Positions 3,661 through 27,955 of a stretch of 32,000 nt of DNA are shown piece by piece. The translations under genes and the position numbers were made by a program. This DNA comes from Nitrosococcus oceani ATCC 19707. GTDB lineage: Bacteria > Pseudomonadota > Gammaproteobacteria > Nitrosococcales > Nitrosococcaceae. The notes under the pieces are model-generated. The model was not told where the DNA came from. It was given only the letters and a program-made list of their open reading frames with translations, and searched no databases. Position 1 is the stretch's first letter; every line of letters starts with the position of its first letter. The stretch covers positions 1,410,001-1,442,000 of the forward strand of contig NC_007484.1 in assembly GCF_000012805.1 (NCBI RefSeq). Reading direction: 5' to 3'.

Positions 3661-3675
3661 AAACGGGCGAGTTGG

Positions 3676-8999: not shown

Positions 9000-9028
9000 T
9001 TGAATACTGCCGCATTTTTAACTATGTT
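9000..9028 (+). promoter_or_regulatory. Candidate sigma70 promoter copy 2 inside repeat unit 2 (TTGAAT-17-TATGTT)
   Basis: Same element 170 bp downstream. The -10 hexamer ends about 98 nt before the ATG at 9126. Confidence 0.35.
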
Positions 9029-9125
9029 TTAACTATTTAGCGTTGGATACATTTCATAGGGTCGGTTGAGTCGTATAAAACTGGCCCCATTCTTTTCCAA
9101 ATTCGGATAGGGAGGTAGAGAAATT

Positions 9126-14705: not shown

Positions 14706-15412
14706 GGCTGGTTGTTGGTATGTCTGCGAGGTTGGCCACCCGCAAAAAGGGCGGCTAGGATTACCCCAATGGAAAGAGCGGCGGGAAACTCCAACCACAA
14801 AATCTTGGTTTTCATCCACTGGGGAGAAACCGCCAACAGCAGATCCCCGCCCACAAGGGGAATCATGGCTACGGTGAGAAAAATGGCGATGCCTAGCGCC
14901 GCGGCAAGGCGTAGCCAGATTTCCGGGGGGAGAGGAATCTCCGAAAGATTGGAGAGGCGAAAAAGTGCCCCTATTGTGCCCAACATGGCTCCGCCCTGGA
15001 AGGCGCCGCCAGCAGCGCTTCCCCCTGCCCAGACTAGATAAAAGAAAGCGAGGGCCATGAGGGGAAGCACCAGCCGCAGAAAATCGAGCAAGATAGGACC
15101 AGGAGGACTCGGGGAGGGGGGGGGAGGGGCTTCCCCGAAGGACCATACGCCAATGAGGGCTAGGAGTAACACAGCCAATTCCAGCAAGGTATCGTAATCG
15201 CGAAAGAGCAACAGTACCGCCGTCACTGGACTGATTTCCCCGCCCGGCTCCTTAGCGGCAAAGACCATTGGCCCCAAGCCCGTTGCAATGGGAGCAAGAT
15301 CCATGACTCCCCGGATCAGAATAGCCATGAGCACTAATAGCAGGGATAGCAGTACGATCCTATAGGGATCTATCATGGTTGTGGTTGCTAATCGAGACTT
15401 ATTGGGGGTCAT
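14702..15412 (-). CDS. mnhB: Mrp/Mnh antiporter subunit B-like membrane protein
   Basis: The MnhB-type core (..VTAVLLLFRDYDTLLELAVL.., ..GGAFQGGAMLG..) carries a Pro-rich insert (EAPPPPSPSPPGP). The start is uncertain: ATG at 15412 (MTPNK..) or ATG at 15376 (MIDPY..). Confidence 0.7.
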   Translation of the reverse strand: MTPNKSRLATTTMIDPYRIVLLSLLLVLMAILIRGVMDLAPIATGLGPMVFAAKEPGGEISPVTAVLLLFRDYDTLLELAVLLLALIGVWSFGEAPPPPSPSPPGPILLDFLRLVLPLMALAFFYLVWAGGSAAGGAFQGGAMLGTIGALFRLSNLSEIPLPPEIWLRLAAALGIAIFLTVAMIPLVGGDLLLAVSPQWMKTKILWLEFPAALSIGVILAALFAGGQPRRHTNNQP

Positions 15413-15689
15413 GGTGGTCGGGATTCGGTTTGCTTTGCCTAGGCTGGCCATTACTCATTCGGCGCCAGGTCACCAGCAAGGCGGTGCCCGACAGACCCGC
15501 GCCGATAGCTGCCTCGGCGAGAGCAATATCGACGGCGGCTAGCCGCACCCAGGCTACTGCCATGATGAAGCTAAAGGCAACAAATAGCACGAGGGCTCGG
15601 AACAAATCTTGGCCGGCGAGCATCCGCCAGGCTAGCCAAAGTAGGGTAAGTGCCAGCAACCCATCGATGCTCCACTGCCAGAAATTCAT
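15399..15689 (-). CDS. DUF4040 / MbhD-like protein (equivalent to the MrpA C-terminal module)
   Basis: 96 aa, three TM helices, ..AVDIALAEAAIGAGLSG.. motif. ATGA overlap with the mnhG stop at 15686-15689. Confidence 0.65.
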   Translation of the reverse strand: MNFWQWSIDGLLALTLLWLAWRMLAGQDLFRALVLFVAFSFIMAVAWVRLAAVDIALAEAAIGAGLSGTALLVTWRRMSNGQPRQSKPNPDHHDPQ

Positions 15690-16000
15690 GGCTTATCCTT
15701 GGGCTGAATGCCCTGCTCTAATGTGGTTCGGGCAATGAGAAAGCTGGTAGTAGCGCTAGTAACTATCACCAATAGCCAGATCAAAATCAATTTGAGCGCG
15801 CTACTCAAAGTATCGGCCTGTAGCGCCAATCCAGCGACGAGAAGCCCAAGCCCCAGGTTATCCGCTTTGGTGAGGGCATGGAGACGGCTGTAGATATCGG
15901 GAAACCGCAGCAAGCCGAGGGTACCCACGATAAAGAAGAAGGTTCCCGACACGGTCAATACCGCACTTAACCACTGGCTGATAGACACCGGATTAGTCAT
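15686..16000 (-). CDS. mnhG: Mrp/Mnh antiporter subunit G
   Basis: Trimmed to MTNPVSISQWL... (ATG at 16000). Family motif GLLRFPDIYSRLHALTKADNLG. Confidence 0.75.
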   Translation of the reverse strand: MTNPVSISQWLSAVLTVSGTFFFIVGTLGLLRFPDIYSRLHALTKADNLGLGLLVAGLALQADTLSSALKLILIWLLVIVTSATTSFLIARTTLEQGIQPKDKP

Positions 16001-16265
16001 CGCTCTGGGGTGATGCGCTCCAGATATGCCGGATGAAGGCGATGGTGGCAACAGCCGCCAGCAAGGCAAGTACTAAGGCGACATTCTGTAGGGAAGGTGC
16101 CTGCATTGCTTCGGCCAATAACAATAAAACAGCCACGCTGGTGGTGCCAAAAAGTTGCGCGGCGAGCATCCGGTCTGCCGCCGTAGGTCCTCGCAGCACC
16201 CGAATGAGGCCCATCATAATGGTGGCGATGAGAATAAGCGCTAATCCTAAATTAAGAGATGTCAT
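15993..16265 (-). CDS. mnhF: Mrp/Mnh antiporter subunit F
   Basis: Trimmed to MTSLNLGLALILIATIMMGLIRVLRGPTAADRMLAAQLFGT..., which is MnhF/PhaF-like. About 90 aa. Confidence 0.7.
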   Translation of the reverse strand: MTSLNLGLALILIATIMMGLIRVLRGPTAADRMLAAQLFGTTSVAVLLLLAEAMQAPSLQNVALVLALLAAVATIAFIRHIWSASPQSDD

Positions 16266-16806
16266 TCCCGATTTTCTCATGATTGCTGCTATTAGTGTGC
16301 GGCAATCGAAACAGAGCTGCAATACGTGTTTCAAGGGCTTGGGCTTCGGCGGCAATCGGAGCCTGGGTATCCAAGACATGGAGGGTAAGGCTATGGCGGC
16401 GGATGCGCGTCACCAGGGTGCCAGGCAAAAGGTTAATCGCATTAACAAGCAAGGTATGGGCCGGCGTACCTGGAGACAATTGGGTTGGGAATTCCACCAG
16501 ACCAAGATTAAGGGGTAAACGGGGTTGAAGCACCCGTTTTGCCACATCGATGCCAGCACGCAATGATTGCCAGCAAAAAAATAGGATAAAGGATAACAGA
16601 CTAAGGTAATCCAATTTAAAAGGGATCGCCCGCGAAAAGCGCAGGCTAATGTAACTTGCTATTAGTATAGCGGGTACGCCTACACTCCAGGAAGCAGGAG
16701 TACCTCCCGTCAGAATCCACCATAGGCAGGCAAAGAGAAGTATTCGCACCAGGATAGGGCGCCAGGAAATTTGTAAGAACTGTTGGGTAGACGGGGATTT
16801 CAACAA
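16252..16806 (-). CDS. mnhE: Mrp/Mnh antiporter subunit E
   Basis: Two N-terminal TM helices plus an MnhE-like core (..SLRAGIDVAKRVLQP.., ..NAINLLPGTLV..). The track start at 16806 is TTG, so the exact start is uncertain. Confidence 0.65.
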   Translation of the reverse strand: MLKSPSTQQFLQISWRPILVRILLFACLWWILTGGTPASWSVGVPAILIASYISLRFSRAIPFKLDYLSLLSFILFFCWQSLRAGIDVAKRVLQPRLPLNLGLVEFPTQLSPGTPAHTLLVNAINLLPGTLVTRIRRHSLTLHVLDTQAPIAAEAQALETRIAALFRLPHTNSSNHEKIGNDIS

Positions 16807-16996
16807 GATTTTTCTCTCTTAACTTGGTCATTTGGTAGCTATGGTGGAGTTGTGAATAGGAGATAGTCTTATGATTTAAGAGTCCTCCTCCGGGCGTTTA
16901 TTATTTTCCCCCCATGCAAAAGTAAGTCAAGGATGGTCTATACTTAGTATTAAGAATAGTTTACTAAACAAATGATTAGCAAGCGGGTTAAGCAGT

Positions 16997-17929
16997 ATGA
17001 AAGAAATCAAGAATATCCTTCTGGCCCTTGATGGTAAATATCAGCGGCAGGCACTGATAGCCCAAGTGGCCGCAGTAGCAGAAAGCAGGGGCGCGCGGGT
17101 AACGCTATTGAGCGTTTTGGAATCACCGCCCAGCAAGCAGGAGGTAGGGATAGCGTCGTCGGAACTCCAGCAACTTATGACTGAAGAGCGGGCTGAACGG
17201 CTACAGTCTATCGCCTCGGAGCTTGAACAACATGGCGTCCAAGTAACAGTTAAGGTTGTCCACGGAAAAGCTTTTATGGAAATCATTCGTGAAGCTTTAA
17301 AAGGCAAGTATGATTTAGTCATGAAGCCCGCTGAGAGCGAGTCAAGCATAAGAAGTATTTTATTTGGCAGCACGGATATGCAGCTTTTGCGTATGTGTCC
17401 CGCTCCGGTTTGGGTTATTAAGCCCACTCACCATCCTCAGGTGAGTAAGATCATGATAGCAGTAGATCTATTGCCCCCTGATGAAGAAAAAACCGCCCTT
17501 GCTGACAGTGTGATGCAGTGGGGAAAAGTCATTGCTCACTTAGCTGGTGTCGAACTTGATGTGCTTCATGTGTGGGATCTGTATGGAGAAACCACCCTGC
17601 GAGGGAGAACGGTGCTGGCGGATACCGTTGATAATCTGGTGCAAAATGAGGAGCAACGCCACCGCCAGTGGCTGGATGAATCCCTTTCAAAAAACGGGTT
17701 AGCGCCAGAAAAAGTACGGATACACTTTTATAAAGGCGAAGCGAAAGAACTGATTCCTGCTGTAGCCAACCAAATGGAAACGGATCTATTGGTCATGGGG
17801 ACGGTGGGGCGGACCGGAATACCGGGTTTTTTTATCGGCAATACAGCTGATTCGGTGCTTCAGCAGGTGGATTGTTCCGTGCTTGCTATCAAGCCAGAGG
17901 GCTTTGTCACGCCAGTTAAAATCGATTAG
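16997..17929 (+). CDS. Universal stress protein, tandem USP domains (UspE-like)
   Basis: Two USP domains. The second carries the ATP-binding-type motif VMGTVGRTGIPGFFIGNTADSVLQQVDCSVLAIKP. ATG confirmed at 16997. Confidence 0.85.
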   Translation: MKEIKNILLALDGKYQRQALIAQVAAVAESRGARVTLLSVLESPPSKQEVGIASSELQQLMTEERAERLQSIASELEQHGVQVTVKVVHGKAFMEIIREALKGKYDLVMKPAESESSIRSILFGSTDMQLLRMCPAPVWVIKPTHHPQVSKIMIAVDLLPPDEEKTALADSVMQWGKVIAHLAGVELDVLHVWDLYGETTLRGRTVLADTVDNLVQNEEQRHRQWLDESLSKNGLAPEKVRIHFYKGEAKELIPAVANQMETDLLVMGTVGRTGIPGFFIGNTADSVLQQVDCSVLAIKPEGFVTPVKID

Positions 17930-18082
17930 GGCTCTCCTTGTGCCTGATGGAAGGGTGCTGAAGGTTCATTCGGCGCCAGGGAAGGGGGGCTGATTCCCAA
18001 AAAGATGCTCGCTGCTGCCGACTGCCAGAAGGCGGGATGCGCTTTCGCTTTCCCGCCCTACGTGCTATAGCTAAATCTATAA

Positions 18083-18607
18083 TTACTGATACGCTGCAAC
18101 GATATTCTCAAGGGTTTCATGTTCGTTGTATTCTCTGATTTTTTTGATATTTCCGAAGTCTTTTTCTATGGGGTTAAAGTCAGGGGAATAAGGGGGGAGG
18201 AATAAAATTCCCGCCCCTGTTTTTTTGATGATTTCACGTGAAGAAACGGCTTTGTGGAACGGAGCATTATCCATGATGACAATGTGGTTGCTGTTGAGCA
18301 AGGGGCAAAGCTCTTTTTCCAGCCATGCATTGAACACAGCCGTGTTACAGGTTCCCTCAAATAGAAACGGCGCTTCAAAGCCTTCATCCATACGGGCGGC
18401 CAATAAAGAGGTTCGCGGTCTGCGATGACCGGAGATCAGACCATAAACACGCCGCCCCTTTGGAGCGTAAGCGTAACGACGGGAAACCTCCGGCTCAAAA
18501 CCGCTTTCATCAAGATAGACAAATCTTTTGCCGCGGCGGCGATAGCGTTCACGAAGGCGAAGAAAGCTCTTTCTTTTCATATTACAGCGCTGCGTGTACC
18601 CCGTCAT
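18083..18607 (-). CDS. IS630-family transposase, DDE catalytic part (orfB), in the +1 frame relative to orfA
   Basis: DDE triad context: VYLDESGF, IVIMDNAPFHK, LPPYSPDFNPIEKDF. It overlaps orfA at an A8 run (T8 on the plus strand, 18607-18614). Confidence 0.8.
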   Translation of the reverse strand: MTGYTQRCNMKRKSFLRLRERYRRRGKRFVYLDESGFEPEVSRRYAYAPKGRRVYGLISGHRRPRTSLLAARMDEGFEAPFLFEGTCNTAVFNAWLEKELCPLLNSNHIVIMDNAPFHKAVSSREIIKKTGAGILFLPPYSPDFNPIEKDFGNIKKIREYNEHETLENIVAAYQ

Positions 18608-18914
18608 TTTTTTTACGGGTTAACCCCATTTTGTGCATCGCATGCCAAATACAGTAATACGAAACGCCAAAATGCCGGGCGCGTTCTTTATAGGTGAGAG
18701 CAGCCTTGTCTTCCACATGGACCCGTAAAGCCTCCCAGTCCAGCTTGTGTGAACGGCGAGGGCCGGGACGCTCGTAACACAGCGCATCATCCTGCGACAA
18801 CCAGCGATAAATGCTCGCGCGGCCTACCTGAAATCTCCGGGCCGCTTCCGCCTTGCTTCCACCGCCCCTTACAAAATCGATTACTCGTTTGCGCAAATCA
18901 ATTGAACATCTCAT
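18582..18914 (-). CDS. IS630-family transposase, N-terminal HTH part (orfA)
   Basis: MRCSIDLRKRVIDFVRGGGSKAEAARRFQVGRASIYRW... is a helix-turn-helix. It ends shortly after the A8 run. Confidence 0.8.
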   Translation of the reverse strand: MRCSIDLRKRVIDFVRGGGSKAEAARRFQVGRASIYRWLSQDDALCYERPGPRRSHKLDWEALRVHVEDKAALTYKERARHFGVSYYCIWHAMHKMGLTRKKNDGVHAAL

Positions 18915-19012
18915 CACAACAGTATGAATGAATATAACACAAATGTCTCAATATTTATAAATTTAGATATAACGCCCCTCACGGCAGGCGTTAGACCTCG
19001 TATCTAGGGGGC

Positions 19013-19051
19013 GTAACCTACAAGGTTACATACCGTAACCTCAGCGGTTAC
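19013..19051. promoter_or_regulatory. Two tandem palindromes GTAACC-N5-GGTTAC directly upstream of higB (candidate HigA operators)
   Basis: O1 at 19013-19029 is gtaacc tacaa ggttac. O2 at 19035-19051 is gtaacc tcagc ggttac. O2 ends 8 nt before the higB ATG. Confidence 0.5.
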
Positions 19052-19059
19052 AATTCTTA

Positions 19060-19231
19060 ATGATTAGGAGTTTTGCTCACAAAGGCATGGAACGGTTTTA
19101 CCAAGCTAGTGGCAAGTCGGGCACTCAGGCGAAACATGCTACGCGACTGCGGCTAATCCTCTCTAACCTGGATGACGTTTCGCTTTGTGGGCCGTGATGC
19201 AGAAACTGTGAATTACGAAGATTACCACTGA
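19060..19231 (+). pseudogene. higB: higB (RelE/ParE-superfamily killer protein) with an internal deletion plus frameshift
   Basis: The N-terminal 39 codons MIRSFAHKGMERFYQASGKSGTQAKHATRLRLILSNLDD run into a stop at 19195-19197. The +1 frame then reads TFRFVGRDAETVNYEDYH* (stop 19229-19231), the typical HigB C-terminus. The middle third of a roughly 92-aa HigB is missing. Confidence 0.7.
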
Positions 19232-19243
19232 CGAGGTTGGCTC

Positions 19244-19540
19244 ATGAATATGCATAATCCCGCTCATCCAGGCGAGATTCTAAGAGAACTGGTAATTGAG
19301 CCTTTGGGGCTATCGGTCACTGAGGCTGCCCGTCATTTGGGCATAAGCCGAAAGACCCTTTCTAAGGTACTCAACGGTCGTGGTGTAATTACGCCGGAGA
19401 TGGCGTTGCGGCTTGAAATGGTATTCGGCAAGCCGAATGCAGCACACTGGCTCAGGCTGCAGAACGCCTATGATCTCTGGCAAACCCGTCAGCATTGCGC
19501 CGATATGCACGTTACGCCTGTGAAAACCCATGTTGCTTAA
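19244..19540 (+). CDS. higA: HigA antitoxin (XRE-family HTH, VapI-like)
   Basis: [55 protein letters not shown] is the canonical HigA/VapI HTH. Confidence 0.85.
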
Positions 19541-19552
19541 TGCTTATGTTTG

Positions 19553-19613
19553 GCCTAACTCGGCGCTCCAGCCGACGCTGCTAAAGCGGCGTGGCTGAGC
19601 TTGGTCGATAGGT
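19553..19613 (+). other. attC-like recombination site (61 bp) after higA
   Basis: GCCTAAC-tcggc-gctccagcc-[gacgctgc taaa gcggcgt]-ggctgagc-ttggtc-GATAGGT. The R'' box fits RYYYAAC, and the L''/L' boxes pair with one extra base in L''. The R' box reads GAT instead of GTT. Confidence 0.55.
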
Positions 19614-20001
19614 CGGCGCATCGTCGAATTTGCCAAAGAGATCGGATACCCGACGATTGCGGTAGAAGAGCTTGGCGGTATTCGTAAGGGGCGCAAACTG
19701 CGAAAAAAGCAGCGCACGGATTTGAACCGCTGGGCCTTTTATGAGCTGGAACAGTTTATCCGCTATAAAGCAAAACACCTTCGGTATGGCGGTCATCGGG
19801 ATTGACCCGAAGTACACCAGCCAAGGGTGTAGCCGCTGCGGACATACTGAGAAGGCTAATCGACATCAACATTATTTTCTCTGTAAAGCGTGTGGCTATG
19901 AGTTGCACGCTGATTTAAACGCTTCTCGTAATATTCGCCTGAGAGGTGTCCTTGCGAGGCAAGCTCTTTGCCAGGATGCGGCGCTGTCATGCATCGCTTA
20001 A
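19614..20001 (+). pseudogene. tnpB: tnpB (IS200/IS605-family OrfB, RuvC-like nuclease) remnant, 5'-truncated and frameshifted
   Basis: Frame A reads ..RRIVEFAKEIGYPTIAVEELGGIRKGRKLRKKQRTDLNRWAFYELEQFIRYKAKH and stops at 19803-19805. Frame B (track ORF 19741-20001) continues FGMAVIGIDPKYTSQGCSRCGHTEKANRHQHYFLCKACGYELHADLNASRNI. This covers the RuvC E and D motifs and the zinc finger. Only about the last third of a TnpB is present. Confidence 0.75.
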
Positions 20002-20075
20002 GCACAGGACGTTGATCCAGGCTCGAACCTTGGGGAGTTCATGGGCAAGCCGCCTGCTTTAGCTGGCGGTACATG

Positions 20076-20285
20076 ACTATCCAATGATAATAGTTGCTTA
20101 TCTGGCAATAGGGATACACAACCCCGTTAAAACAGTTGCAGATAGCGCCAACAAATTCCTACTAAGATTCTCTATCCTCATCCTCCAGATAGATGTCCCC
20201 GCGCCTATTATTTCCTCTCAAGGTTACCGGATACAGCACACTCGCAAAACCCGATAGCAGACCCTTTCTCTCCTTATTCCGTGCG
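20076..20285 (-). pseudogene. RAYT / IS200-like Y1 transposase (COG1943-type) fragment with stops and a frameshift
   Basis: My minus-strand translation gives ..GLLSGFASVLYPVTLRGNNRRGDIYLEDEDRES**, matching the family N-terminal block (HV..RGNNR..IF..DEDR). A second frame gives ..FNGVVYPYCQISNYYHWIV, matching the family block AYcLMsNHyHLlv but with a degraded HUH motif. Confidence 0.5.
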
Positions 20286-20366
20286 GATGCTATAGTGCCT
20301 GAGACGAATAGCCTCCCGCACTTGATCGAGGAGCTTAGGCGGGGACTTGGGCTTTGAGATATTCAT
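20274..20366 (-). pseudogene. 5' stub (30 codons) of a tyrosine recombinase with an integron-integrase-like N-terminus
   Basis: MNISKPKSPPKLLDQVREAIRLRHYSIRTE*. The block LLDQVRExIRxRHYSxRTE(QAY) is the start of the SAM-like N-terminal domain typical of IntI-type integrases. It is followed immediately by the RAYT fragment. Confidence 0.5.
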
Positions 20367-20380
20367 GCGTATATCACCGA

Positions 20381-20410
20381 TTGGCAAAACTCAATAACTT
20401 CAGTTATAGA
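20381..20410 (+). promoter_or_regulatory. Candidate outward promoter (TTGGCA-17/18-TTATAGA) between the integrase stub and the first rightward cassette
   Basis: Hexamers read directly. The position is analogous to a cassette promoter, and there is no other support. Confidence 0.25.
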
Positions 20411-20668
20411 TATGATATGGGTTATTTTGTTCTCCATTTAAGAGAGGGGAGGTGTCTTATAAGACGCAGGTCGCAAAACGAATAGAGAAATAAGACGGAG
20501 GTGCGCATTAGCCAAAACCCATATACGCTGCCGGGATGAGCAATTATTTGATGTAAGGATAGAAATAGGGATTGGTCGGTGGTCGGTTGCGTGTAAAAAG
20601 GCGCAACTTAGTCAGTCTATTTTATGTTGGGCGTTTAATATAACGAAATAGATAAAGAGAGGTTAACT

Positions 20669-20890
20669 ATGAATAGAAAACTAACCGCCATCATTGAAAG
20701 GGAAGACGATGGCTATGTAGCACTTTGTCCAGAGGTGGATGTGGCTAGTCAAGGCGATACTATTGGCGAGGCTAGAAATAACTTGAAAGAAGCGTTGGAA
20801 TTATTTTTCGAGGTCGCATCCCCTGAGGAAGTAACGTCACGGCTACATGAAGAAGTTTATGTTACTTATGTGGATATAGCAGTTGGGTAA
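20669..20890 (+). CDS. hicB: HicB-family antitoxin (UPF0150)
   Basis: MNRKLTAIIEREDDGYVALCPEVDVASQGDTIGEARNNLKEALELFFE is the typical HicB N-terminal fold sequence. SD agagagg lies upstream. Confidence 0.8.
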   Translation: MNRKLTAIIEREDDGYVALCPEVDVASQGDTIGEARNNLKEALELFFEVASPEEVTSRLHEEVYVTYVDIAVG

Positions 20891-21101
20891 GCTTAAAGTC
20901 TTCTCCGGTAAAGAGGTCTGTCAAATACTGGAAGCCCACGGTTTTGAGAAAGTGAGGCAACGTGGAAGTCATATAGTTATGCAAAAACAGATATCGGGAA
21001 GCACAGTTACCGTACCAGTTCCAGATCATAAAGAAATCAGGGCAGGCACGCTGATGTCTATCATCCGACAGTCAGGTCTTCAACGCAGTGAGTTTGAATA
21101 A
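20883..21101 (+). CDS. hicA: HicA-family mRNA interferase toxin (YcfA-like)
   Basis: ..SGKEVCQILEAHGFEKVRQRGSHIVMQK.. is the HicA dsRBD-like core with the catalytic His context. The TTG start at 20883 overlaps the hicB end by 8 nt. Confidence 0.8.
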   Translation: MGKLKVFSGKEVCQILEAHGFEKVRQRGSHIVMQKQISGSTVTVPVPDHKEIRAGTLMSIIRQSGLQRSEFE

Positions 21102-21110
21102 GCGAAAATC

Positions 21111-21182
21111 GCCCAACAATGCGCTGCACCTGACCGCTTCGTCGCTATGCTCCTCAGCAGCAGGTGAGCTTGGTCGTTAGGC
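21111..21182 (+). other. attC-like recombination site (72 bp) after hicA
   Basis: GCCCAAC-aatgc-gctGcacctg-...-caggtgagc-ttggtc-GTTAGGC. Both R boxes fit the consensus (RYYYAAC and GTTRRRY). L'' carries one extrahelical G relative to L'. Confidence 0.65.
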
Positions 21183-21218
21183 ATTTGTACTTGTGACACC
21201 GTGCTAGGAGGAAAAGCA

Positions 21219-21431
21219 ATGAGAATATTAAATGCGTTAACCACAGTAGTGGTCTTAACTCTGTGGTCATTTTCTGCATCAGCAACCTCGATCTACACGA
21301 TAACGGAGAGTGGGGACATGCTTTTCTATAAGTATGCTGGTTATAACGACGGATCAGCCAATTGGCCTATACAGGCGAAGAAGATAGGCAATGGCTGGAA
21401 TTTCCGAGAGGTCTTTGCTAGCGGTACCTAA
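21219..21431 (+). CDS. Small secreted protein, single beta-propeller-blade-like fragment
   Basis: SD aggagg lies 8 nt upstream of the ATG at 21219. Signal peptide MRILNALTTVVVLTLWSFSASA. The mature part, IYTITESGDMLFYKYAGYNDGSANWPIQAKKIGNGWNFREVFASG, looks like one tachylectin/tectonin-type repeat. The 5' extension in the track (GTG 21201) was not used. Confidence 0.5.
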   Translation: MRILNALTTVVVLTLWSFSASATSIYTITESGDMLFYKYAGYNDGSANWPIQAKKIGNGWNFREVFASGT

Positions 21432-21533
21432 AGGTATTGCCGAAAAATTCAGTGAACACGGACCCATAAGGCGACGCGCCTTCCTCTACGCTACAAGGCG
21501 AACGGAAAAAGGCTAGGCTCGATCAACGGCGAT

Positions 21534-21589
21534 GCCTAACGAGGCGCTGGAGAGGGACGCCGCAAAAAGCGCGGCGCCCCTCGTTAGAT
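21534..21589 (+). other. attC-like recombination site (56 bp) preceding the 491-aa ORF
   Basis: GCCTAAC-gaggcgc...cgccgc aaaaa gcgcggcg-cccctc-GTTAGAT. Both R boxes fit the consensus. The ATG of the next ORF overlaps the last bases of R' (gttagATG). Confidence 0.65.
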
Positions 21590-23063
21590 GAGCCGAATAA
21601 ATGAACTCTCGGCGAAAAATATAGGAAGAGAAATGACCGATATAGTTTCAAAGAATACTCATACCGAGCTTATTGAACCTCAAGCTCAAAGGGTCGTAGA
21701 TTTTTTAGAGCAAATTGGACTCCCAGCGGACAATATCATAGCCGAACAATCGGAGCGTTCGATAATTGGTCAAACTCTTCCTGCTTACATCGAGTCTTTA
21801 TCTCCTAAAATTAAAAGAGATGCACGCTACCTCTCGAAGTTCGTCGTTGGCGCTGGGTTTGGTCTTTTTGATTATTCTTTAAACGCCATTTGGAATGAGG
21901 TGGTTTTAGATTTACGAAAAAAAGCAATAACATATGGGATAGATATATTTTTCGATTCTGCCGTTGGAGGGGGTAAAAATAGGGAGTTCTACAAGACTGA
22001 AGATGACCTTGGCTCATTGAAAGATGCGGTGCTACTCGATACCTGTCGAAAGTTAGAACTAATTTCTGATACGACATATAAAAAGCTCAAGCATATATTG
22101 GATATGAGAAATGACATTGGAATTTCTCATCCAACCACTTACACAATCAACGCATTTGAATTGCTTGGTTGGTTACAAACCTGTATACAGGACGTTTTAA
22201 ATGATCGGCCTACCGAGGCGGCATTACAAGTCCAAGTCTTCATAAAAAATTTGAAGTCTTATAACGCGCCAATTGATGCTGCTAGGCAGCGCCAGATTGA
22301 ATCGAAAATATCTGAACTGCCAAGCCATCACCTCGCGAGTATTCTTAGAACCACTTTCGGAATTTATGTCTCTCCAGAAACAGACCCGCAAGTCAGAAAA
22401 AATATATCTGTGATAGCGCCAACGATATGGGCTAACTGCTTAGATGAACCAAGATATAAACTGGGAATAATTCTTGAAGGTTACAATACTAATCTTCACC
22501 GCGAAAAATATGAGTTAGGAGAGCAGTTCTTTCAGGTTGTCGGGGGAAACCCATTTAGATCTCCCAATGAACGGGTAATAAACGTAGATACGCTGCTTGA
22601 TCAACTTCTTGAAAAGCATAATGGCTGGGATAATTTTCATCATGAAGCGCCTGTTGCAGATTCAGTCGCGTCCTATATTCAGGAACAAAATGGCATCCTT
22701 CTAAATAATGCCGAGAAGCTAGTGAAGGTAATAATGATGTGTCGAATTGGCAGAGGAGTTACTTATTGCAATGGGGTTTCGCCGAGAGGTAGGGATTATT
22801 ATGACCATATACTGTCTCAGCTAGGTGACAAATACGCGCCTCACGCAATGGCAATTCTCACTCATTACGAGATTCAGAGAAAATTGGAAGCTTCTGTTTG
22901 TAGAGAGCAGGCCAAGCAAGCATTGGAAATGATTAAGCAAAGCGTTGTAAATGCACGCCTAATTGAATGCCTGGATTACTTGATCTCAAAAATAGAAAAT
23001 AATGGTAAATGTGCCTTGGACAGCGAGTTTAAAAAGTTATCGACGCAGTATATAAGCTGGTAA
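21588..23063 (+). CDS. Uncharacterised 491-aa protein with an N-terminal-half HEPN-like domain (R-N-x5-H) and an unknown alpha-helical C-terminal half
   Basis: It is the only long ORF in a visibly AT-rich segment. The motif ..TYKKLKHILDMRNDIGISHPT.. fits the HEPN Rx4-6H signature with a polar residue after Arg. The preceding helix pattern is like DUF4145/Abi-type HEPN domains. No recognisable motif is seen after about residue 210. An alternative start is Met16 (21633). Confidence 0.55.
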   Translation: MSRINELSAKNIGREMTDIVSKNTHTELIEPQAQRVVDFLEQIGLPADNIIAEQSERSIIGQTLPAYIESLSPKIKRDARYLSKFVVGAGFGLFDYSLNAIWNEVVLDLRKKAITYGIDIFFDSAVGGGKNREFYKTEDDLGSLKDAVLLDTCRKLELISDTTYKKLKHILDMRNDIGISHPTTYTINAFELLGWLQTCIQDVLNDRPTEAALQVQVFIKNLKSYNAPIDAARQRQIESKISELPSHHLASILRTTFGIYVSPETDPQVRKNISVIAPTIWANCLDEPRYKLGIILEGYNTNLHREKYELGEQFFQVVGGNPFRSPNERVINVDTLLDQLLEKHNGWDNFHHEAPVADSVASYIQEQNGILLNNAEKLVKVIMMCRIGRGVTYCNGVSPRGRDYYDHILSQLGDKYAPHAMAILTHYEIQRKLEASVCREQAKQALEMIKQSVVNARLIECLDYLISKIENNGKCALDSEFKKLSTQYISW

Positions 23064-23065
23064 TC

Positions 23066-23182
23066 ATCTAACAATTTGCTGCACGCGGACACATACTGCT
23101 ACGCTCGTTTCTGTGTGTCGCCGCGCTCCATTTTACACAAAAACGCTCTTCGCAGTATGTGCCGGTGAGCAAGGCGATAGGT
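23066..23182 (+). other. attC-like recombination site (117 bp) after the 491-aa ORF, with a degenerate R' box
   Basis: ATCTAAC-aatttgctgcac...cacatactgc (23090-23099) pairs with gcagtatgtg (23152-23161). It ends ...ccggtgagcaaggc-GATAGGT. The ends are homologous to the 21111-21182 site (aacaatNNgctgcac / ggtgagc...taggN). Confidence 0.5.
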
Positions 23183-23203
23183 CGGCGCGAAGCGCCGACC
23201 TAT
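23177..23203. repeat. REP-like perfect palindrome ATAGGTCGGCGC-GAA-GCGCCGACCTAT
   Basis: 12-bp arms with a 3-nt loop. Its first 12 nt (ataggtcggcgc) also occur at 19608-19619, at the attC/tnpB junction. Confidence 0.75.
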
Positions 23204-23230
23204 CGGGTCGAAGTTGAACCCCCGGTCGCC

Positions 23231-23254
23231 ATGGCGGCGCAAAGCGCCGCCTAT
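23231..23254. repeat. REP-like palindrome ATGGCGGCGC-AAA-GCGCCGCCTAT (related, shortened 5' arm)
   Basis: 8-bp perfect stem ggcggcgc/gcgccgcc, lying 27 nt after the first copy. Confidence 0.65.
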
Positions 23255-23696
23255 CTCCCGTTGGAGCGGACACCGCTTCGCGGCTTCGCCCCCTTGGTTG
23301 GGAAAATGAGGGTCCAAAATCAGCTTCTTTTAAGCGTATATTACGCAGCAAAAGACTACTAACTCCGAAGAAGGAATGAACCCACATTTGCTCAAGTCGG
23401 GGGTGCCGCTCAACTTCGACCCGTTGGGCGTCAGAGCAACGCCGTAGATTCTGGTGACGTCTAGGAGTTGAGAGCTAGTGATATCAATTTTCGGTAAAAG
23501 TGACACTTCTATCTGGGTTCCAGTCGCAAAAGGCAAAGGTGGCGGTCCGGCTAGGGCGTTTCTGCCATTCAATTCGTTGCAGCGGACACTTGACCCGCCA
23601 CCCATTTTTGCTGCCGCAAAAACGGGTGGCGCCTCAAATGCCGCTGAACTCAGGCGTTCGGCGCCGCAAGATTATAAGAGTGGGGAAGATATTTGC

Positions 23697-24692
23697 ATGA
23701 GTGATCAGAAAATATTCGATAGTTCACTCCCGGCGGATAGCCCACGCTCTCTGCCGTACTGTGCGTATCCTCGGGCACGGGAGGTTACACAGCATGGGGT
23801 ACAAGTGCTACCGGCAGTCTTGCCTCTCGTGGATTTCACGCAGGCGCAGCCCTATCGCAGCATACAGTACAAGGCGATTGAAGCCGCACGACTACTCCCA
23901 GCCCAGGTGATGCAGATGGCACGAGTTGTGGCAACGGCGTTTGCACGGCGCGAACCCCAGATCCGCCACCTCCAGCCCCCCAAATCTCCGCCGACGGGGC
24001 TGCTGAACGCACGGCATATCGATCCCTTCGGCACAGACGCCTTCGGTCTATGGACCCCGGAAAACCTGGTCTACTGGGCCATCCGGCTCCTGATACTCAC
24101 TGATCCCACCAGCCCGAAGGGCACCATGCAGATCAACGACGAGGCATTGGCGCAATCGCTCGCCATCGTTGATAGGACAGGGCAGGTGATTGGTGGCGCG
24201 TTCAACAAAACCATGCTTTCCCTCGATGAGCCACCGCCATTTCGCCAAGACGACCTCTTTCTGAGTGCTGTCTTGTCGTTTTTGCAGCCAATCTTCACCC
24301 TCTTACAGACCCAGGAGATCGAAGGACTCTCGGCGTTGTGTGCCCAGTTTCCGGCATTTCAGCACGCCTATGCACAGGAGAAGGTTGGCCACCATTTCAT
24401 GGTGGCACGGTCCGATGCGCTCCCCAAGGAGGAGGCGTTTGAACTCGTGGCGGCTAGCGCCGCGCATTATCAGGCCCTCGGGTATGCATATATGGTGACT
24501 GAAGCGAGCAATCAATGGACCGGAGCCGCGTGCGAGGTGCTCGGTGGGGTACGTGTACACTTTGCGCCCTACCAGGCGCGTCACACGGTACACCAGAGCC
24601 CAGAGCCGTTGGAAGGCATCGTGACAAGCCCAAACGGGTGGCTGTCGAACAAAGACAGTGGCAGTATGTTCTACGTGCTCAGTCTCGCGTAA
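23697..24692 (+). CDS. GC-rich orphan protein, 331 aa (possible degenerate GNAT-like fold; function unknown)
   Basis: I trimmed the 404-aa track ORF to the ATG at 23697 (MSDQKIFDSS...) with ggggaag upstream. The extension is low-complexity and overlaps structured repeats. ..ARVVATAFARREPQ.. and ..GYAYMVTEASNQWTGAACEVLGG.. are only weakly reminiscent of acetyltransferase folds. Confidence 0.55.
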   Translation: MSDQKIFDSSLPADSPRSLPYCAYPRAREVTQHGVQVLPAVLPLVDFTQAQPYRSIQYKAIEAARLLPAQVMQMARVVATAFARREPQIRHLQPPKSPPTGLLNARHIDPFGTDAFGLWTPENLVYWAIRLLILTDPTSPKGTMQINDEALAQSLAIVDRTGQVIGGAFNKTMLSLDEPPPFRQDDLFLSAVLSFLQPIFTLLQTQEIEGLSALCAQFPAFQHAYAQEKVGHHFMVARSDALPKEEAFELVAASAAHYQALGYAYMVTEASNQWTGAACEVLGGVRVHFAPYQARHTVHQSPEPLEGIVTSPNGWLSNKDSGSMFYVLSLA

Positions 24693-24781
24693 GGGTTGGT
24701 CAACACACCGAGCGGCTGGAGAAGGGGAAAGGAGCAGACAATTCGGGCTTTCTCCCCGTGTCCCCAGCCGAACATAGAGAT

Positions 24782-24804
24782 GTAGGCGCTTCGCGCCGAC
24801 CTAC
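24782..24804. repeat. REP-like palindrome GTAGGCGC-TTC-GCGCCGACCTAC (inverted copy of the 23177 element, one arm 3 nt shorter)
   Basis: The reverse complement reads gtaggtcggcgc gaa gcgcctac. A further relative, gcgagcg-N15-cgctcgcctat, lies at 24840-24872. Confidence 0.65.
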
Positions 24805-24990
24805 GGTGCCTTGCGCTGGAAAGCGAACACGCAAGAACTGCGAGCGCGGCTCGACTCGGCCCGCTCGCCTATCCAGCAGCGGAGGATGAACTTCGGCGAA
24901 CCTGAGGGGTTGCCCGATCCGGTTTAGCGATACTTTAGTATATAAAGTCACAATTTAATCTGACGGTTACGAATTATCGGCCAGCCGGCG

Positions 24991-26259
24991 CTACTTGGGG
25001 CGCGATCTTGATAGGGCGTAGACAACGAGGATTAGTACACAAAAACCTCCTATTCCAGTAAGCGCGATAAAAAGGTCGAGGTTATCCAATTCCTTTGAAG
25101 AGCCATGCTGGCTAGCAAGAAAGAGGCCCAAAGTCGCCCCAATTCCTAGGCTGCGCTTGGCGATACCAAGCAATGATAGGGCCGTGGCGCGCAGGCCCCC
25201 CACTGCGTAATCTAGCATCCAGGATTTAACGAGAGGTGGCAGGGCCAGCAGGATTGACTGCGCCAGGCCCAACAAGAGAGGGATAGCAGGCGAGGGGCCA
25301 GTTATTGCCGCAGCGCCCAGGCTGAGAGACAGGCAAAGCGCGGCCGCAATGAGGAATGCACGTTGCTTAGGAGTTAGCTTCTCGGTGGGGAAACGCCAAG
25401 CCAGATAGGCCCCTAGAGCGCTTACCATCAACACCACGGTGAGGTTGAAAGCGAAGATGTTCAACGCGCGGTCGGCAATGGTGCTGCCAGGTAAAAGCTT
25501 GGCGGGCGCCAGGTAGTCGATGTACTGAAACAATAAATTGGTGCAGGCACCTATGGTGACCGCAACCAAAAGACCTGTGCGCCCGTACCGCAGCACCGCC
25601 AGGTACTCCCGGAGGGGAAAGGCGAGAAGTTTCCGTGGATCAGGGTGCTGGATACTTAGATTCGGCAGCCGGGGAGGGCGTAGTAGAATCGCGCCACCGG
25701 CTAGCCCCAGGGCGAGCAAATAGGGGGCAAAGCTGGTATTTGCCAGGCCAGGGAGATCCAGGGAGGCATTCCAAGGCGGGCCGTAGAGTAGGGGAAAAGC
25801 CAGGGTCGCGGCCCCAAGATAACCTAGATTATAGAGCAAATAGCCCTCGGTAAGATGGCGATCCGTAGCTGGAAGCCCGTCAGTCTTTTGGCTCCAGGCT
25901 TCATCCAGCCAGGCATCCAAGGAGGCGTGGTAGAGTCCCAGTCCGATACCGAAGGCCAGTCCAGCGGCATAAAGCAGGGAGGGTGCGTTCCCGGCAATCC
26001 CGCCTATTGTCAGCAGGGCCCAACAGCCCTGCGCCCCGGCGGCGGCGGTGATGGCGGCTGAGCGGTTGTAATGATCGGAAACTTGGGGCGCAGCCACCTC
26101 CCCCAGCAGCATCCCAATAAAGCTGGCAGCCACAAGTATCAGAACGGCGCTATCCTCGGGCGCCAGGCGAGTTAATACCCAAACGTCCAAGGTATAGCGC
26201 AGACCCACCAAGGCGCCAAACAGGGCGCAGAGCAGGAGATAGCGCGCCCGAATACCCAT
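24991..26259 (-). CDS. MFS-like 12-TM transporter
   Basis: 422 aa, almost entirely hydrophobic, with about 12 helices in two halves separated by a basic loop (..LRPPRLPNLSIQHPDPRK..). ATG confirmed at 26259, 16 nt after the upstream stop. Confidence 0.7.
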   Translation of the reverse strand: MGIRARYLLLCALFGALVGLRYTLDVWVLTRLAPEDSAVLILVAASFIGMLLGEVAAPQVSDHYNRSAAITAAAGAQGCWALLTIGGIAGNAPSLLYAAGLAFGIGLGLYHASLDAWLDEAWSQKTDGLPATDRHLTEGYLLYNLGYLGAATLAFPLLYGPPWNASLDLPGLANTSFAPYLLALGLAGGAILLRPPRLPNLSIQHPDPRKLLAFPLREYLAVLRYGRTGLLVAVTIGACTNLLFQYIDYLAPAKLLPGSTIADRALNIFAFNLTVVLMVSALGAYLAWRFPTEKLTPKQRAFLIAAALCLSLSLGAAAITGPSPAIPLLLGLAQSILLALPPLVKSWMLDYAVGGLRATALSLLGIAKRSLGIGATLGLFLASQHGSSKELDNLDLFIALTGIGGFCVLILVVYALSRSRPK

Positions 26260-26275
26260 GGATAGGGTTGCCTCT

Positions 26276-27652
26276 CTACCTCCGCAGTAGCATCATGGAA
26301 GCATAACGGGCATCTTCAAGGTGATAGGCTTTGAAGTTTTCCTCTTTTATTAAATGGTACGCTTCGGCCAGGGTGGGGGCGCCGGTGGCGTTCTCAAAGG
26401 CGCCACGAACTGCCTCGACGAGGTTCCGTACGGGTGAGTCGCCGATTTGATCATTGGCCAGGGACACGTCTAGGGTCTCGAGCCAAGGGATAATTCTATT
26501 GTGTACTTTCTGGGCTGCTTCCACGTCCGCTCCCCGCACTTTTTGGAACACCAGTGGAACCTCGATATGCTCTTCGTTGGAAGTTGATGAAATGATGCGC
26601 TTCAGGAACAGAGGCGGCTGTATTTGCCAAAAGCTGCTTGCGTTAATGGGGTGGATCTCATCCAGGCTGACCGCCGCCAGATCGATGCGCCCAGAAAGGT
26701 CATTGGAGAAGCGCTTCAGGTTGACGATCAAATAATCCTCTTGGACAACATCGTCATAGTAAGCGAGGATTAGACAGTCCACCGGATTCTCCGAAATCTC
26801 TTCGTAATAACCCTTATAGGAGCTATTAGAAGAGAAACGCTTCATTCTCCGTAGTATTCCGGTATTTTTATCGCTATCGCCCACGAAGATTACCGAGGCG
26901 GTTTTCGCACCAGACTCGGTCCCATGGGATTCGAAGCGGATATAGGTATTTTCCCCTTCCCGCAGGCCCGTGATGCGTTGCACCTTGATGACCACTTTCT
27001 CAAAATAGAAAAACACCGTGGTGATATGAGGTTCCCCTAGCATGGCTAGCGGTTTGCCATCCGATTTGCGGGTTTCATAGAGACCGCCTAGCAAGTTACG
27101 CAGGGTCGTGGGCTCTTCCTCGTCAAAAATCTCATCTACGGTATCCTGGTCTTTCTTCCACTCTGTGTAGGTGCTCCAGTTGAATTCCCGCTTCATCACT
27201 TGGGTGACGATATCGCCGAATTTCTCGAGGGTGAGGGGGCGCTCAAGGGGATCCTTTGGCGGAAACAGCGTTGCCGGTGGTATGAGGTAAAAGAACAGCA
27301 GCATACCACTAAACCACAGGGCGACAGGTCCCGCGACCGCCACGGTCAGGCCCATTAGGGTGCCGCCAATGCGAGTGGAGTTGACAAACAGCAGCGAGTT
27401 CGCGGTAGAAAGGGCAAAGAACATGAGCACGATGACCACGACAAAACTGGGGAGCGTCCAATCGTTAGGGTTAATGAAGAAAAGGTAGAAGGTGGTGGCA
27501 CCGAGCGCTACTAAGGTGATCACGGTAGCCACGGCGAAAATATGCTTGGGATTGATGCGCTCCAGGGTTGCGGCGCGATGGTTCGGAGTCTCGTTCTGGA
27601 ATTCGTCTGGTTCTGGAGCGGTTTGTGTGCTATCTACCCTCGGTTCTTCCAT
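26276..27652 (-). CDS. Uncharacterised membrane protein: about 4 N-terminal TM helices plus a roughly 330-aa cytoplasmic domain with no recognisable motif
   Basis: Trimmed to the ATG at 27652 (MEEPRVDSTQ...), because the track start at 27706 is TTG. TM block FAVATVITLVALGATTFYLFF...GMLLFFYLIPP. Confidence 0.65.
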   Translation of the reverse strand: MEEPRVDSTQTAPEPDEFQNETPNHRAATLERINPKHIFAVATVITLVALGATTFYLFFINPNDWTLPSFVVVIVLMFFALSTANSLLFVNSTRIGGTLMGLTVAVAGPVALWFSGMLLFFYLIPPATLFPPKDPLERPLTLEKFGDIVTQVMKREFNWSTYTEWKKDQDTVDEIFDEEEPTTLRNLLGGLYETRKSDGKPLAMLGEPHITTVFFYFEKVVIKVQRITGLREGENTYIRFESHGTESGAKTASVIFVGDSDKNTGILRRMKRFSSNSSYKGYYEEISENPVDCLILAYYDDVVQEDYLIVNLKRFSNDLSGRIDLAAVSLDEIHPINASSFWQIQPPLFLKRIISSTSNEEHIEVPLVFQKVRGADVEAAQKVHNRIIPWLETLDVSLANDQIGDSPVRNLVEAVRGAFENATGAPTLAEAYHLIKEENFKAYHLEDARYASMMLLRR

Positions 27653-27746
27653 TGAATTACACCGCCTTCGGCGCTTCGGCCCGTGGATACTCGTTATGAA
27701 AAACAATTAATCATTAGTTTAGTCTAAGGGAGGTAAGGGCGATGTG

Positions 27747-27775
27747 AAAATTTTACTTTATTAAAGTAAAATTTT
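27747..27775. promoter_or_regulatory. 29-bp perfect palindrome (14-bp arms, 1-nt centre) in a divergent intergenic region
   Basis: aaaattttacttta-t-taaagtaaaatttt, located between the 26276-27652 operon (minus) and yajD (plus). Confidence 0.55.
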
Positions 27776-27955
27776 ACCGATGATATAGGGAGCAATTTTT
27801 ATTGCCCGCGGCTATTGCCCGAAGTCAATAATTGAGAGTGGATTTTGCTCTGGTATTGTCAGTGTCCGCCGTTCCCTAACCGCCTATTATAAAGTAAGGG
27901 TGTTACCTTTGAAGAGTGGAAGTGAAACAGGATTAAATATAGGAGCAAGTGACTA

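Follow-up and report, generated by a model that had tools for sequence, protein, structure and literature searches.

The work described here concerns a 32,000-nucleotide stretch of the Nitrosococcus oceani ATCC 19707 chromosome (contig NC_007484.1, positions 1,410,001 to 1,442,000; hereafter the window), in which we identify an island, at 18065-25006, that is very probably a degenerate chromosomal integron and operationally a CALIN, a group of clustered attC sites without an integron integrase. By its published definition a CALIN consists of two or more attC sites that share a strand and are spaced by less than 4 kb, in a neighbourhood where a functional intI is missing (PMC4889954). A first-pass annotation, made by a model from the sequence alone, had proposed just such a decayed integron-type cassette array, and the proposal is upheld by five clustered, same-orientation matches to attC models, by the family assignment of an integrase stub, by the absence of the block from a sister species and by a difference between strains that falls at G|TT.

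We searched for attC sites using two covariance models, neither of which had any sequence of the window in its training set. The first (R1) was built from 17 class-1 cassette attC sites, cut by position after known cassette genes in seven annotated plasmid arrays, and describes the canonical structure, in which 7 bp form the R stem, 5 nt the spacer and 3+5 bp the L stem, one base of the latter being bulged; the aadA1 attC matched 1,962 plasmid records at 99% identity or more. The second (R2) comprises 30 sites and adds attC from three metagenomic arrays. Over both strands of the window (64 kb), R1, run with its filters off, and R2 give the same five significant sites, all on the plus strand and all within 19553-23662 (4.1 kb). 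Each lies at E≤1.5e-3 with R1 and at E≤4e-4 with R2, which matches all five at full length, and the next-best match in the 64 kb searched has an E of about 0.45-0.95. The largest gap between the five sites is about 1.9 kb, inside the CALIN spacing. On control loci (94 kb) all 30 of the 30 matches at E≤0.01 fall on the cassette strand, and three class-1-array sites that had not been used in training, in line with known cassette sites, score 29-40 bits with R1, the range of the window matches. In contrast to the island, 42 kb of N. watsonii and N. wardiae around the usp gene give no attC match at E≤1. A cruder, rule-based scan finds 3 sites against 0.37 expected in shuffles; Rfam, searched at gathering thresholds over the whole window, gives no match, and no Rfam family fits the attC sites found here.

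The four palindromes on which the first-pass annotation had based its case all carry the quoted sequences at the positions given. Three of them, sites 1, 2 and 3 of Table 1, are significant with both models, whereas the fourth, 21534-21589, has no R1 match at E≤10 and reaches only 11.5 bits (E 1.2) with R2, on both strands; its stem is stable (z = -4.3) and its architecture unlike that of attC. Nor were the four the full set, as two significant sites, 4 and 5, had been overlooked. Site 2 scores highest (R1 44.0 bits, E 1.5e-8; R2 55.6 bits, E 8e-11). Sites 1 (R1 26.1 bits, E 3.2e-4; R2 37.2 bits, E 1.5e-6) and 3 (R1 29.9 bits, E 3.8e-5; R2 26.7 bits, E 3.8e-4) are matched at full length by both models, site 4 partially by R1 (23259-23420, 23.3 bits, E 1.5e-3) and fully by R2 (32.5 bits, E 1.8e-5), and site 5 at 23570-23656 by R1 (28.9 bits, E 6.4e-5) and by R2 with 32.1 bits (E 2.1e-5). 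An attC has mutually complementary R boxes at its ends, R'' RYYYAAC and R' GTTRRRY; site 2 fits this perfectly and sites 1 and 3 with one mismatch (GATAGGT). Extrahelical bulges, anticipated in the earlier reading, appear in the bottom-strand folds of sites 1 and 2: in site 1 five unpaired spacer nucleotides separate the R stem from a bulged L stem, and in site 2 the R stem has 8 bp, the spacer is again unpaired and the L stem carries two bulges of a single base each. Site 3 (z = -3.6) has single-base bulges on one side, site 5 folds with z = -5.3, and site 4 is nested in a larger palindrome in which 23199-23217 pairs with 23410-23428. Four of the five sites adjoin the end of a gene unit or start within 12 nt of one: site 1 starts 12 nt past the higA stop, site 2 starts 9 nt past the hicA stop and site 3 starts 2 nt past the stop of a 476-amino-acid (aa) open reading frame (ORF). 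Site 5 lies inside the annotated N-terminus of a '404-aa' ORF.

Structure, not sequence, is conserved among the N. oceani attC sites. In an alignment, fitted to the model, of seven distinct sites (the five of the window and two from a sister strain described below), every cell of the L helix is paired (100%), with compensatory changes in 4 of its 8 pairs, and the R helix is 80% paired. Pairing over all cells amounts to 90.5% against 79% in shuffles, and the covariation score to 0.368 against 0.153; none of 500 shuffles reached either observed value, and sliding the partners by 1-3 columns lowers pairing to 22-41% of cells. The single extra base noticed earlier on one side of the L boxes is a constant of all five matches, standing in L'' at model position 16 of R2 as it does in the training sites. 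The folded bottom strand of attC is the substrate of the integron integrase, which cuts it at G|TT, and the sites described here would be substrates of this kind.

What survives of an integrase is a stub of 30 codons, whose first-pass reading as intI-like holds as far as 30 residues allow. Fifteen of 25 residues (60%) are identical to residues 10-34 of IntI1 (pairwise BLASTP E 1e-7), the sole NCBIfam match among 18,950 models is the integron integrase NF011946 (positions 13-34, E 0.002), and in Pfam the stub matches positions 1-19 of Phage_int_SAM_4 (E 0.018); a PDB search gave spurious matches only. We therefore describe the stub as IntI-like, a length of 30 residues being unable to show the IntI-specific domain. 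A complete integron carries an intI with that domain; here codons 1-30 only are present. No further intI-like frame occurs in the ORF list for 15000-28000, and no IntI profile was run over the six-frame translation. Upstream of the stub, the interval before the first cassette is the putative attI and promoter region. It ends in GTTGGGC (20626-20632), 18 nt downstream of GCGCAAC, and contains the tandem GGTCGGT GGTCGGT (20575-20588); the GTTGGGC junction lies 260 bp upstream of the stub's start and opens the hicBA cassette. In a complete integron, attI adjoins intI and is where cassettes enter, and a Pc promoter drives the array. Sequences of attI are class-specific and not conserved between integron classes. 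A consensus promoter scan of 20250-20700 found no rightward promoter, the scan itself being uninformative.

The first-pass annotation held the integron to have been inactivated by insertion of RAYT, tnpB and insertion sequence (IS) elements, RAYT being a transposase associated with repetitive extragenic palindromic (REP) sequences. Debris of these kinds is present, but not as a simple interruption: codon 30 of intI is fused, in another frame, to the N-terminal half of a RayT-type pseudogene, and the remaining intI is absent. The assignment of that pseudogene is weak; RayT-family protein P0179 aligns to it by tblastn (34% identity, 62 aa, E 0.016) in an alignment that stays collinear across the HUH motif, and it aligns pairwise to the RayT of a metagenomic contig, L046 (E 3e-4), but has no direct Pfam or NCBIfam match. 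The tnpB remnant (Pfam Cas12f1-like_TNB, 2.7e-18) cuts the RayT pseudogene with its right end at 20077, and its 5' truncation lies at a half palindrome adjoining site 1. An 80%-identical tnpB remnant with the same right end occurs in locus L020, the right-end hairpin is common to a tnpB element of N. watsonii whose left end differs, and a search with the repaired tnpB C-terminus returned fragments only and no full-length copy. Every junction between higBA and the stub is truncated. The damage to intI is therefore a series of insertions and deletions, not a single clean insertion. At the left edge stands an IS630-family element (Pfam DDE_3, 4.9e-41; HTH_Tnp_IS630, 8.4e-24) whose target was the TA of an R''-like CTAAC; a look-up of its OrfA returned this locus only, and contigs of other assemblies end at it. 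Separately, N. watsonii carries near mnhE/mnhF a complete 1.24-kb, tnpB-only element of IS200/IS605 type (L018 8030-9268) that is absent in N. oceani (16265/16266).

The island is flanked by the 3' ends of usp and of a minus-strand gene of 422 aa. An identical usp protein (16997-17929) occurs in three NCBI assemblies and in several sequencing runs, and it has homologues of 94% identity in Nitrosococcus watsonii and 81% in N. wardiae. In N. watsonii the order is usp, an unrelated 2.2-kb insert, a 37-bp hairpin 97% identical to window 18028-18064, and the orthologue of the 422-aa gene; at this locus 18065-25006 has no counterpart, and the 6.9-kb block is therefore specific to N. oceani. Synteny with N. 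wardiae stops after usp. The absence from N. watsonii means that the locus is not ancient in the genus. The N. watsonii insertion in the same spacer (L018 10976-13138) carries a 554-aa gene without a Pfam match, and the separate inserts in the two species therefore mark the convergent-gene spacer as an insertion hot spot in both. Within N. oceani the block was found in every assembly recovered (AFC27 and many Logan runs), although these strains do not make up a defined pan-genome. A 2.0-Mb scaffold of GCA_000155655.1, which we take to be strain AFC27, matches window 6997-27366 at about 100% identity, one 620-bp piece excepted; we rejected this extra piece as strain variation, as it consists of an assembly join to a lepA fragment and a run of N. 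The join (L001 16205-16825, window 23203-23258) is placed at a palindrome discussed below, and this mis-join hints at a similar palindrome upstream of lepA at another place in the genome.

The most direct evidence of recombination comes from a 7.3-kb contig of another N. oceani sample (L065, from SRR9437462), which is 100% identical to the window over 19463-23288, is collinear with it from 18989 rightwards, and has, inside the higBA cassette, 6 substitutions and one deletion of 28 nt relative to it. To the left of G|TTAGAC (18990) the contig shows no relation to the window; the genes there are brnTA, a second hicAB, a 153-aa ORF and vapBC, accompanied by three further plus-strand attC matches (48, 36 and 17 bits). 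On the right flank, in the same sample, the 422-aa gene of the window again comes after the 331/404-aa ORF. The cassettes thus differ between N. oceani strains with the breakpoint at a canonical G|TT crossover, which is a signature of integrase-type recombination. The variation on which a synteny comparison had been expected to turn is present at both levels, N. watsonii lacking the block and L065 having other cassettes. The number of attC sites at the N. oceani locus is five to eight; to count as sedentary, an integron has to occur in all genomes of a species or to have >19 attC.

This contig also settles the status of GTTAGAC at 18990-18996, listed earlier as a weak attC candidate. As an attC it is incomplete (R1 10.2 bits, E 2.2; R2 10.6 bits, E 1.9, both sub-threshold), but it is a true cassette junction, though without a complete adjacent attC in the window strain, because L065 diverges exactly there. 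The accompanying idea that IS630 had split an attC whose left half lies at 17995-18064 was rejected: N. watsonii conserves 17995-18064, which is ancestral chromosome, and its homology stops at 18064, just left of the island end. The remaining candidate, 24698-24790, has no match with R1 or R2 and a fold z of -1.5. Outside the island, the rule-based scan also picks up sub-threshold attC-like R-box pairs at 29631-29720 and 29825-29851 (covariance E of about 1), which are most likely chance matches.

Taken together, the island is a row of cassettes in one orientation, namely higB'A, hicBA, the 76-aa ORF, the 476-aa ORF, two ORF-less units and the 331-aa ORF. Each validated boundary in it is an attC, that is, a palindrome, imperfect, that on its bottom strand pairs the R boxes in one stem and, beyond an unpaired spacer, the L boxes in another with extrahelical bases. 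Codons 1-30 of intI survive, divergent from the right-hand cassettes, with about 260 bp of likely attI and promoter DNA between. We infer that an integrase, this one or alternatively one acting in trans, once built and edited the array. The locus can no longer recombine alone and behaves as a CALIN, and the intact hicBA pair plausibly helps to retain the array in the genome. The first-pass annotation had been puzzled by higBA lying on the wrong side of the stub; the puzzle is eased by L065, since higBA is the last cassette of an upstream array that runs in its own direction. A longer array therefore encloses the stub, the likely attI and the cassettes from hicBA to the 476-aa ORF. The stub-bearing 3.56-kb segment 19620-23174 may have entered an older array as a circle, through recombination at G|AT. 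It is bracketed by a 14-nt direct repeat, CGATAGGTCGGCGC (19606-19619 and 23175-23188), each copy of which starts at the G of an attC R' box and which therefore fits such an integration; a strain with the 'empty site', that is, attC 19553-19613 without the 3.56-kb segment, was not found. One might instead suppose that a single integron decayed in place and that higBA was moved by local IS- or RayT-mediated transposition or duplication, with no circle involved. The IS630, tnpB and RayT debris between higBA and the stub, and the truncation of every junction, suit that course of events, which we consider possible but unlikely: the sister strain has at least four further same-orientation cassettes upstream of higBA, so the left part is an array in itself, an inversion would have flipped the orientation of cassettes and none is flipped, and the 14-nt direct repeat around 19620-23174 fits site-specific integration.

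A more radical departure would be that the array was never a resident integron, and that an integrase encoded elsewhere put the cassettes into secondary attG/GWT sites, the stub being unrelated or passive. Integron integrases are reported to insert cassettes at GWT sites of genomes (bioRxiv 10.1101/2022.09.11.507474), and in most CALINs, whose origin has been ascribed to the loss or rearrangement of intI, no intI pseudogene can be recognized (PMC4889954). In the island itself, two attC sites end in G|AT, not G|TT, an R''-16 nt-R' remnant marks the left edge, where the island borders the chromosome, and the stub has an internal and not a terminal place in the array. We nevertheless judge this account very unlikely, since the stub's single family match is an integron integrase, collinear with the IntI1 N-terminus, it has the expected divergent orientation, and it lies about 260 bp from the GTTGGGC junction that opens hicBA, a coincidence for an unrelated fragment. 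To a last reading, that the palindromes are ordinary genome-wide REPs or gene-end terminator hairpins with a superficial likeness to attC, we give hardly any credence. It can point to GATAGGTCGGCGC, which is part of a REP-like palindrome with three to four copies in the region, to the AFC27 mis-join to a lepA fragment, which suggests further copies in the genome, to the RayT pseudogene nearby and to the position of site 4 within a larger palindromic repeat also found in L046. Yet models trained on plasmid sites match at full length, L boxes and extrahelical base included, no such matches occur in the window's other 25 kb or in 42 kb of the sister genomes, the sites differ in sequence and keep their pairing, unlike REP families, and the sister strain swaps cassettes at a G|TT junction.

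Several points weigh against the reading of the island as a degenerate integron and keep our confidence in it short of complete. R1 and R2 are home-made models with short calibration, and their E-values are rough. The attC scan covers the window, and another integron or an intact intI may exist elsewhere in the N. oceani genome. The attC models do not recover the expected boundaries at 21534-21589 and 24698-24790; among the validated sites, GATAGGT replaces GTTRRRY in two, and the R'' of one is degenerate. At 30 residues, the stub is too short for the IntI-specific C-terminal insertion or the catalytic residues, and a SAM-like N-terminus is common to other tyrosine recombinases. Its place amid a same-orientation array is not predicted by a simple integron. 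Finally, the attI role of 20367-20632 is putative and assigned by position, attI being outside the reach of an attC model.

As a kind of relic, degenerate integrons and CALINs are common and already described, and the N. oceani island is a further instance; we found no paper describing an integron in N. oceani. The island resembles the CALINs of Cury et al. 2016 (IntegronFinder; PMC4889954) in its clustered, one-strand attC sites with a 30-codon intI stub only, in its mixture of toxin-antitoxin pairs and cassettes of mostly unknown function with IS elements nearby, and in its small size, its five validated sites comparing with an average of 5. It differs in that a recognizable N-terminal intI stub and a likely attI region survive, and in that the stub stands inside the array and not at its end. 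The published screen for intI pseudogenes used a C-terminal IntI profile at >50% coverage and found 95% of CALINs without an intI remnant (PMC4889954); because of those C-terminal profiles and that coverage, it would miss the stub described here. Some of that 95% may likewise be in-place wrecks, and the island offers a worked example of CALIN formation, with its integrase cut to a 30-codon N-terminal stub. As a documented decayed integron in a marine ammonia oxidiser it has modest practical value; the strain difference at G|TT is direct evidence of fairly recent site-specific editing of the array.

The sites themselves share with class-1 cassette attC (cmlA1, estX, aadA1) the architecture R''-5 nt-L''(3+1+5)...L'(5+3)-5/6 nt-R'. 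Site 2 resembles the cmlA1 attC, and site 3 resembles, at both ends, the attC after an esterase gene (here named estX). In contrast to class-1 sites, GATAGGT occurs at two island sites and GCCTATC at one (a T/A swap, at box position two or six), one site reaches 181 nt, the R'' of one is degenerate, and scores are lower, 23-56 bits against 42-78 bits for the class-1 training sites. Chromosomal integrons with an inactivated intI occur, for example, in Xanthomonas. The island is like them in its fixed locus in the species, its decayed integrase and its strain-variable cassettes, and unlike them in that almost the whole of intI is deleted and the array is small.

The odd R' box GATAGGT of sites 1 and 3 leads to a separate feature of the island, which remains a lead only and leaves the verdict on the integron unchanged. 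GATAGGT is the left arm of a perfect palindrome in which an R'-like box, 15 nt and an R''-like box follow each other (GATAGGT-15 nt-ACCTATC). Its copies are the full one at 23175-23205, a 13-nt left arm at 19607-19619 and an imperfect one of opposite sense at 24783-24805, each preceded by a G that stands where the R' of an attC or attC-like hairpin is expected; the rest of the window and the sister-species loci have no copy. The perfect palindrome of 29 nt, GATAGGTCGGCGCGAAGCGCCGACCTATC, recurs unchanged at 1151-1179 of L046, an unrelated metagenomic cassette array with three attC matches, and in both places it lies between two hairpins of attC type. L046 was the only relevant hit among the 39 loci returned by a metagenome scan for the palindrome core, the other 38 being generic GC hairpins or terminators. 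In L046 the palindrome has on one side an attC-like hairpin with a terminal G and on the other a full-length attC, the R'' of which is the right arm, ACCTATC; a second R'-hairpin-R'' unit, of the same design and other sequence, lies at 299-325, and about 110 nt beside the palindrome are about 72% similar between window and L046, in opposite orientation. L046 ends in a RayT gene (2399-2590; Y1_Tnp, E 0.003), and in two of three further RayT contigs a RayT gene lies directly downstream of an attC array: L061 (gene at 7158-7388, four attC matches), which comes from the same metagenome as L046, and L063 (7396-7703, two matches). These three arrays stand on metagenomic or MAG contigs. The third, L062, carries RayT genes and toxin-antitoxin pairs and gives no attC match. 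RayT homologues are often fragments at contig ends, which suggests multi-copy elements. Also in L046, copies of a 27-nt direct repeat, GATACTGGGGTCAGACTTGTTTATTGA, flank some 380 bp that are GC-rich and lack a long ORF (1963-2367); the insertion interrupts the 3' end of a 242-aa cassette ORF shortly upstream of RayT and may represent a further small element, either mobile or coding for RNA.

Precedents for mobile elements that reside in attC sites are the IS1111-attC insertion sequences and the group IIC-attC introns. Like these, the island shows foreign elements at or beside attC, with the palindrome at the R' of two validated sites and of one unvalidated hairpin, and RayT genes are found in four arrays; unlike them, it involves a Y1/HUH RayT-type gene and a short palindrome, not an IS110-family element or an intron, and the targeting of attC is putative. 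With REP/RAYT systems and REPtrons (PMC8266576, PMC3733652) it shares a GC-rich palindrome with an (A/G)TAG head beside a RayT-type gene. A REPtron has an intact RayT, with the HUH motif and the catalytic Tyr, between inverted REPs, and its REPs are present in many copies across the genome. The island departs from these systems in that the RayT is a pseudogene, truncated and with two stops, the palindrome has three to four copies in 32 kb, in the island only, its arms serve at once as R' and R'' boxes of attC, and an unrelated metagenomic array has an identical copy. That RayT genes could be regular residents of cassette arrays, with a palindrome that mimics attC R' and R'', as parts of a REP/RAYT-like system that lands on or supplies attC hairpins, seems to us quite unlikely on this evidence. 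If true, it would make a third kind of attC-associated mobile element and a possible route by which cassette arrays are rearranged without an integrase.

Table 1. Features of the N. oceani island and its parts (window positions)
Feature	Position	Strand	Details
N. oceani-specific island, whole	18065-25006		N. watsonii aligns up to 17972, at 18028-18064 and from 25007, with nothing between
IS630-family IS	18068-18969	-	frameshifted transposase; TA duplication at 18066-67 and 18970-71; terminal inverted repeats
Island left end, cassette junction G|TTAGAC	18972-18996	+	R''-like (G)CTAAC, 16 nt, R' GTTAGAC (18990-18996)
higBA toxin-antitoxin cassette	19060-19540	+	higB 19060-19233, pseudogene (internal deletion or frameshift); higA 19244-19540, intact
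attC site 1	19553-19613	+	61 nt; R'' GCCTAAC; L'' GCT-C-CAGCC; L' GGCTGAGC; R' GATAGGT, A at position 2
Half copy (left arm) of palindrome	19606-19619	+	CGATAGGTCGGCGC; 14-nt direct repeat with 23175-23188
tnpB (IS200/IS605 OrfB) remnant	19615-20077	+	5'-truncated, frameshifted, with right-end hairpin; element end ...GGTACATGAC (20077)
RayT-type (Y1/HUH, IS200-like) transposase pseudogene (weak assignment)	20063-20270	-	N-terminal half, without start codon; two in-frame stops
intI-like stub	20274-20366	-	30 codons then stop; MNISKPKSPPKLLDQVREAIRLRHYSIRTE; oriented away from the right-hand cassettes
Putative attI and promoter region	20367-20632	+	positional assignment only, between intI start and first cassette
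hicBA toxin-antitoxin cassette	20669-21101	+	hicB 20669-20890; hicA 20883-21101; G+C about 41-46%
attC site 2	21111-21182	+	72 nt, fully canonical; R'' GCCCAAC; L'' GCT-G-CACCTG; L' CAGGTGAGC; R' GTTAGGC
Small cassette ORF	21201-21431	+	76 aa; hydrophobic N-terminus
Possible degenerate attC, not validated	21534-21589	+	R'' GCCTAAC and R' GTTAGAT perfect; L' box and 3' spacer absent
Cassette ORF	21633-23063	+	476 aa; G+C about 40%; alternative of 491 aa from ATG 21588, overlapping the R' box
attC site 3	23066-23182	+	117 nt; R'' ATCTAAC; L'' GCT-G-CAC..; L' ..GGTGAGC; R' GATAGGT
Perfect palindrome	23175-23205		14-bp stem; CGATAGGTCGGCGC-GAA-GCGCCGACCTATCG; R'-like box, 15 nt, R''-like box
attC site 4	23249-23429	+	181 nt, ORF-less; R'' GCCTATC; L'' GTT-G-GAGCGG; L' CCGCTCAAC; R' GTTGGGC
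attC site 5	23564-23662	+	99 nt; R'' degenerate, GCCATTC; L'' GTT-G-CAGCGG; L' CCGCTGAAC; R' GTTCGGC
Last cassette-like ORF	23697-24692	+	331 aa, from ATG 23697; G+C about 58-60%
Hairpin and third, imperfect REP-like palindrome	24698-24805	+	palindrome at 24783-24805, GTAGGCGC-TTC-GCGCCGACCTAC, opposite sense

The cassettes range in G+C content from about 40% (hicBA, 476-aa ORF) to about 60% (331-aa ORF). Both toxin-antitoxin pairs, HigBA and HicAB, are of type II, with small toxin and antitoxin genes side by side. The higA product matches HTH_3 (Pfam, 5.9e-10) and that of the intact hicA matches HicA_toxin (2.5e-20); hicB has weak HicB-like matches below the Pfam cut-off (E 2e-4 to 6e-3). The 76-aa ORF has a tachylectin-like match, PF14517, that is also below the cut-off (7.7e-5), no family above cut-off in Pfam, NCBIfam or PADLOC and nothing usable in PDB. 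Similarly, the 476-aa and 331-aa ORFs have no match in Pfam, NCBIfam or PADLOC and nothing usable in PDB. The ORF that can be read as 491 aa probably starts at ATG 21633, after the ribosome-binding-site-like motif GGAAGAG, and not at the ATG in the R' box. The publicly called 404-aa ORF begins at GTG 23478 and runs through attC site 5; ATG 23697, giving 331 aa, is probably its true start.

Upstream of the island lies an mrp/mnh antiporter operon, and downstream are two uncharacterised minus-strand genes (422 and 476 aa) and an HNH gene. The 422-aa flanking gene, which the first-pass annotation had taken for a member of the major facilitator superfamily, has no family match. Elsewhere in the window, two adjacent 174-bp copies, 89.7% identical, stand upstream of the antiporter operon (8713-8886 and 8883-9056). 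A perfect palindrome with a 20-bp stem occupies 3619-3662, and an AT-rich one with a 13-bp stem, conserved in N. watsonii (L018 15981-16009), occupies 27747-27775; both are probably terminators or operators.

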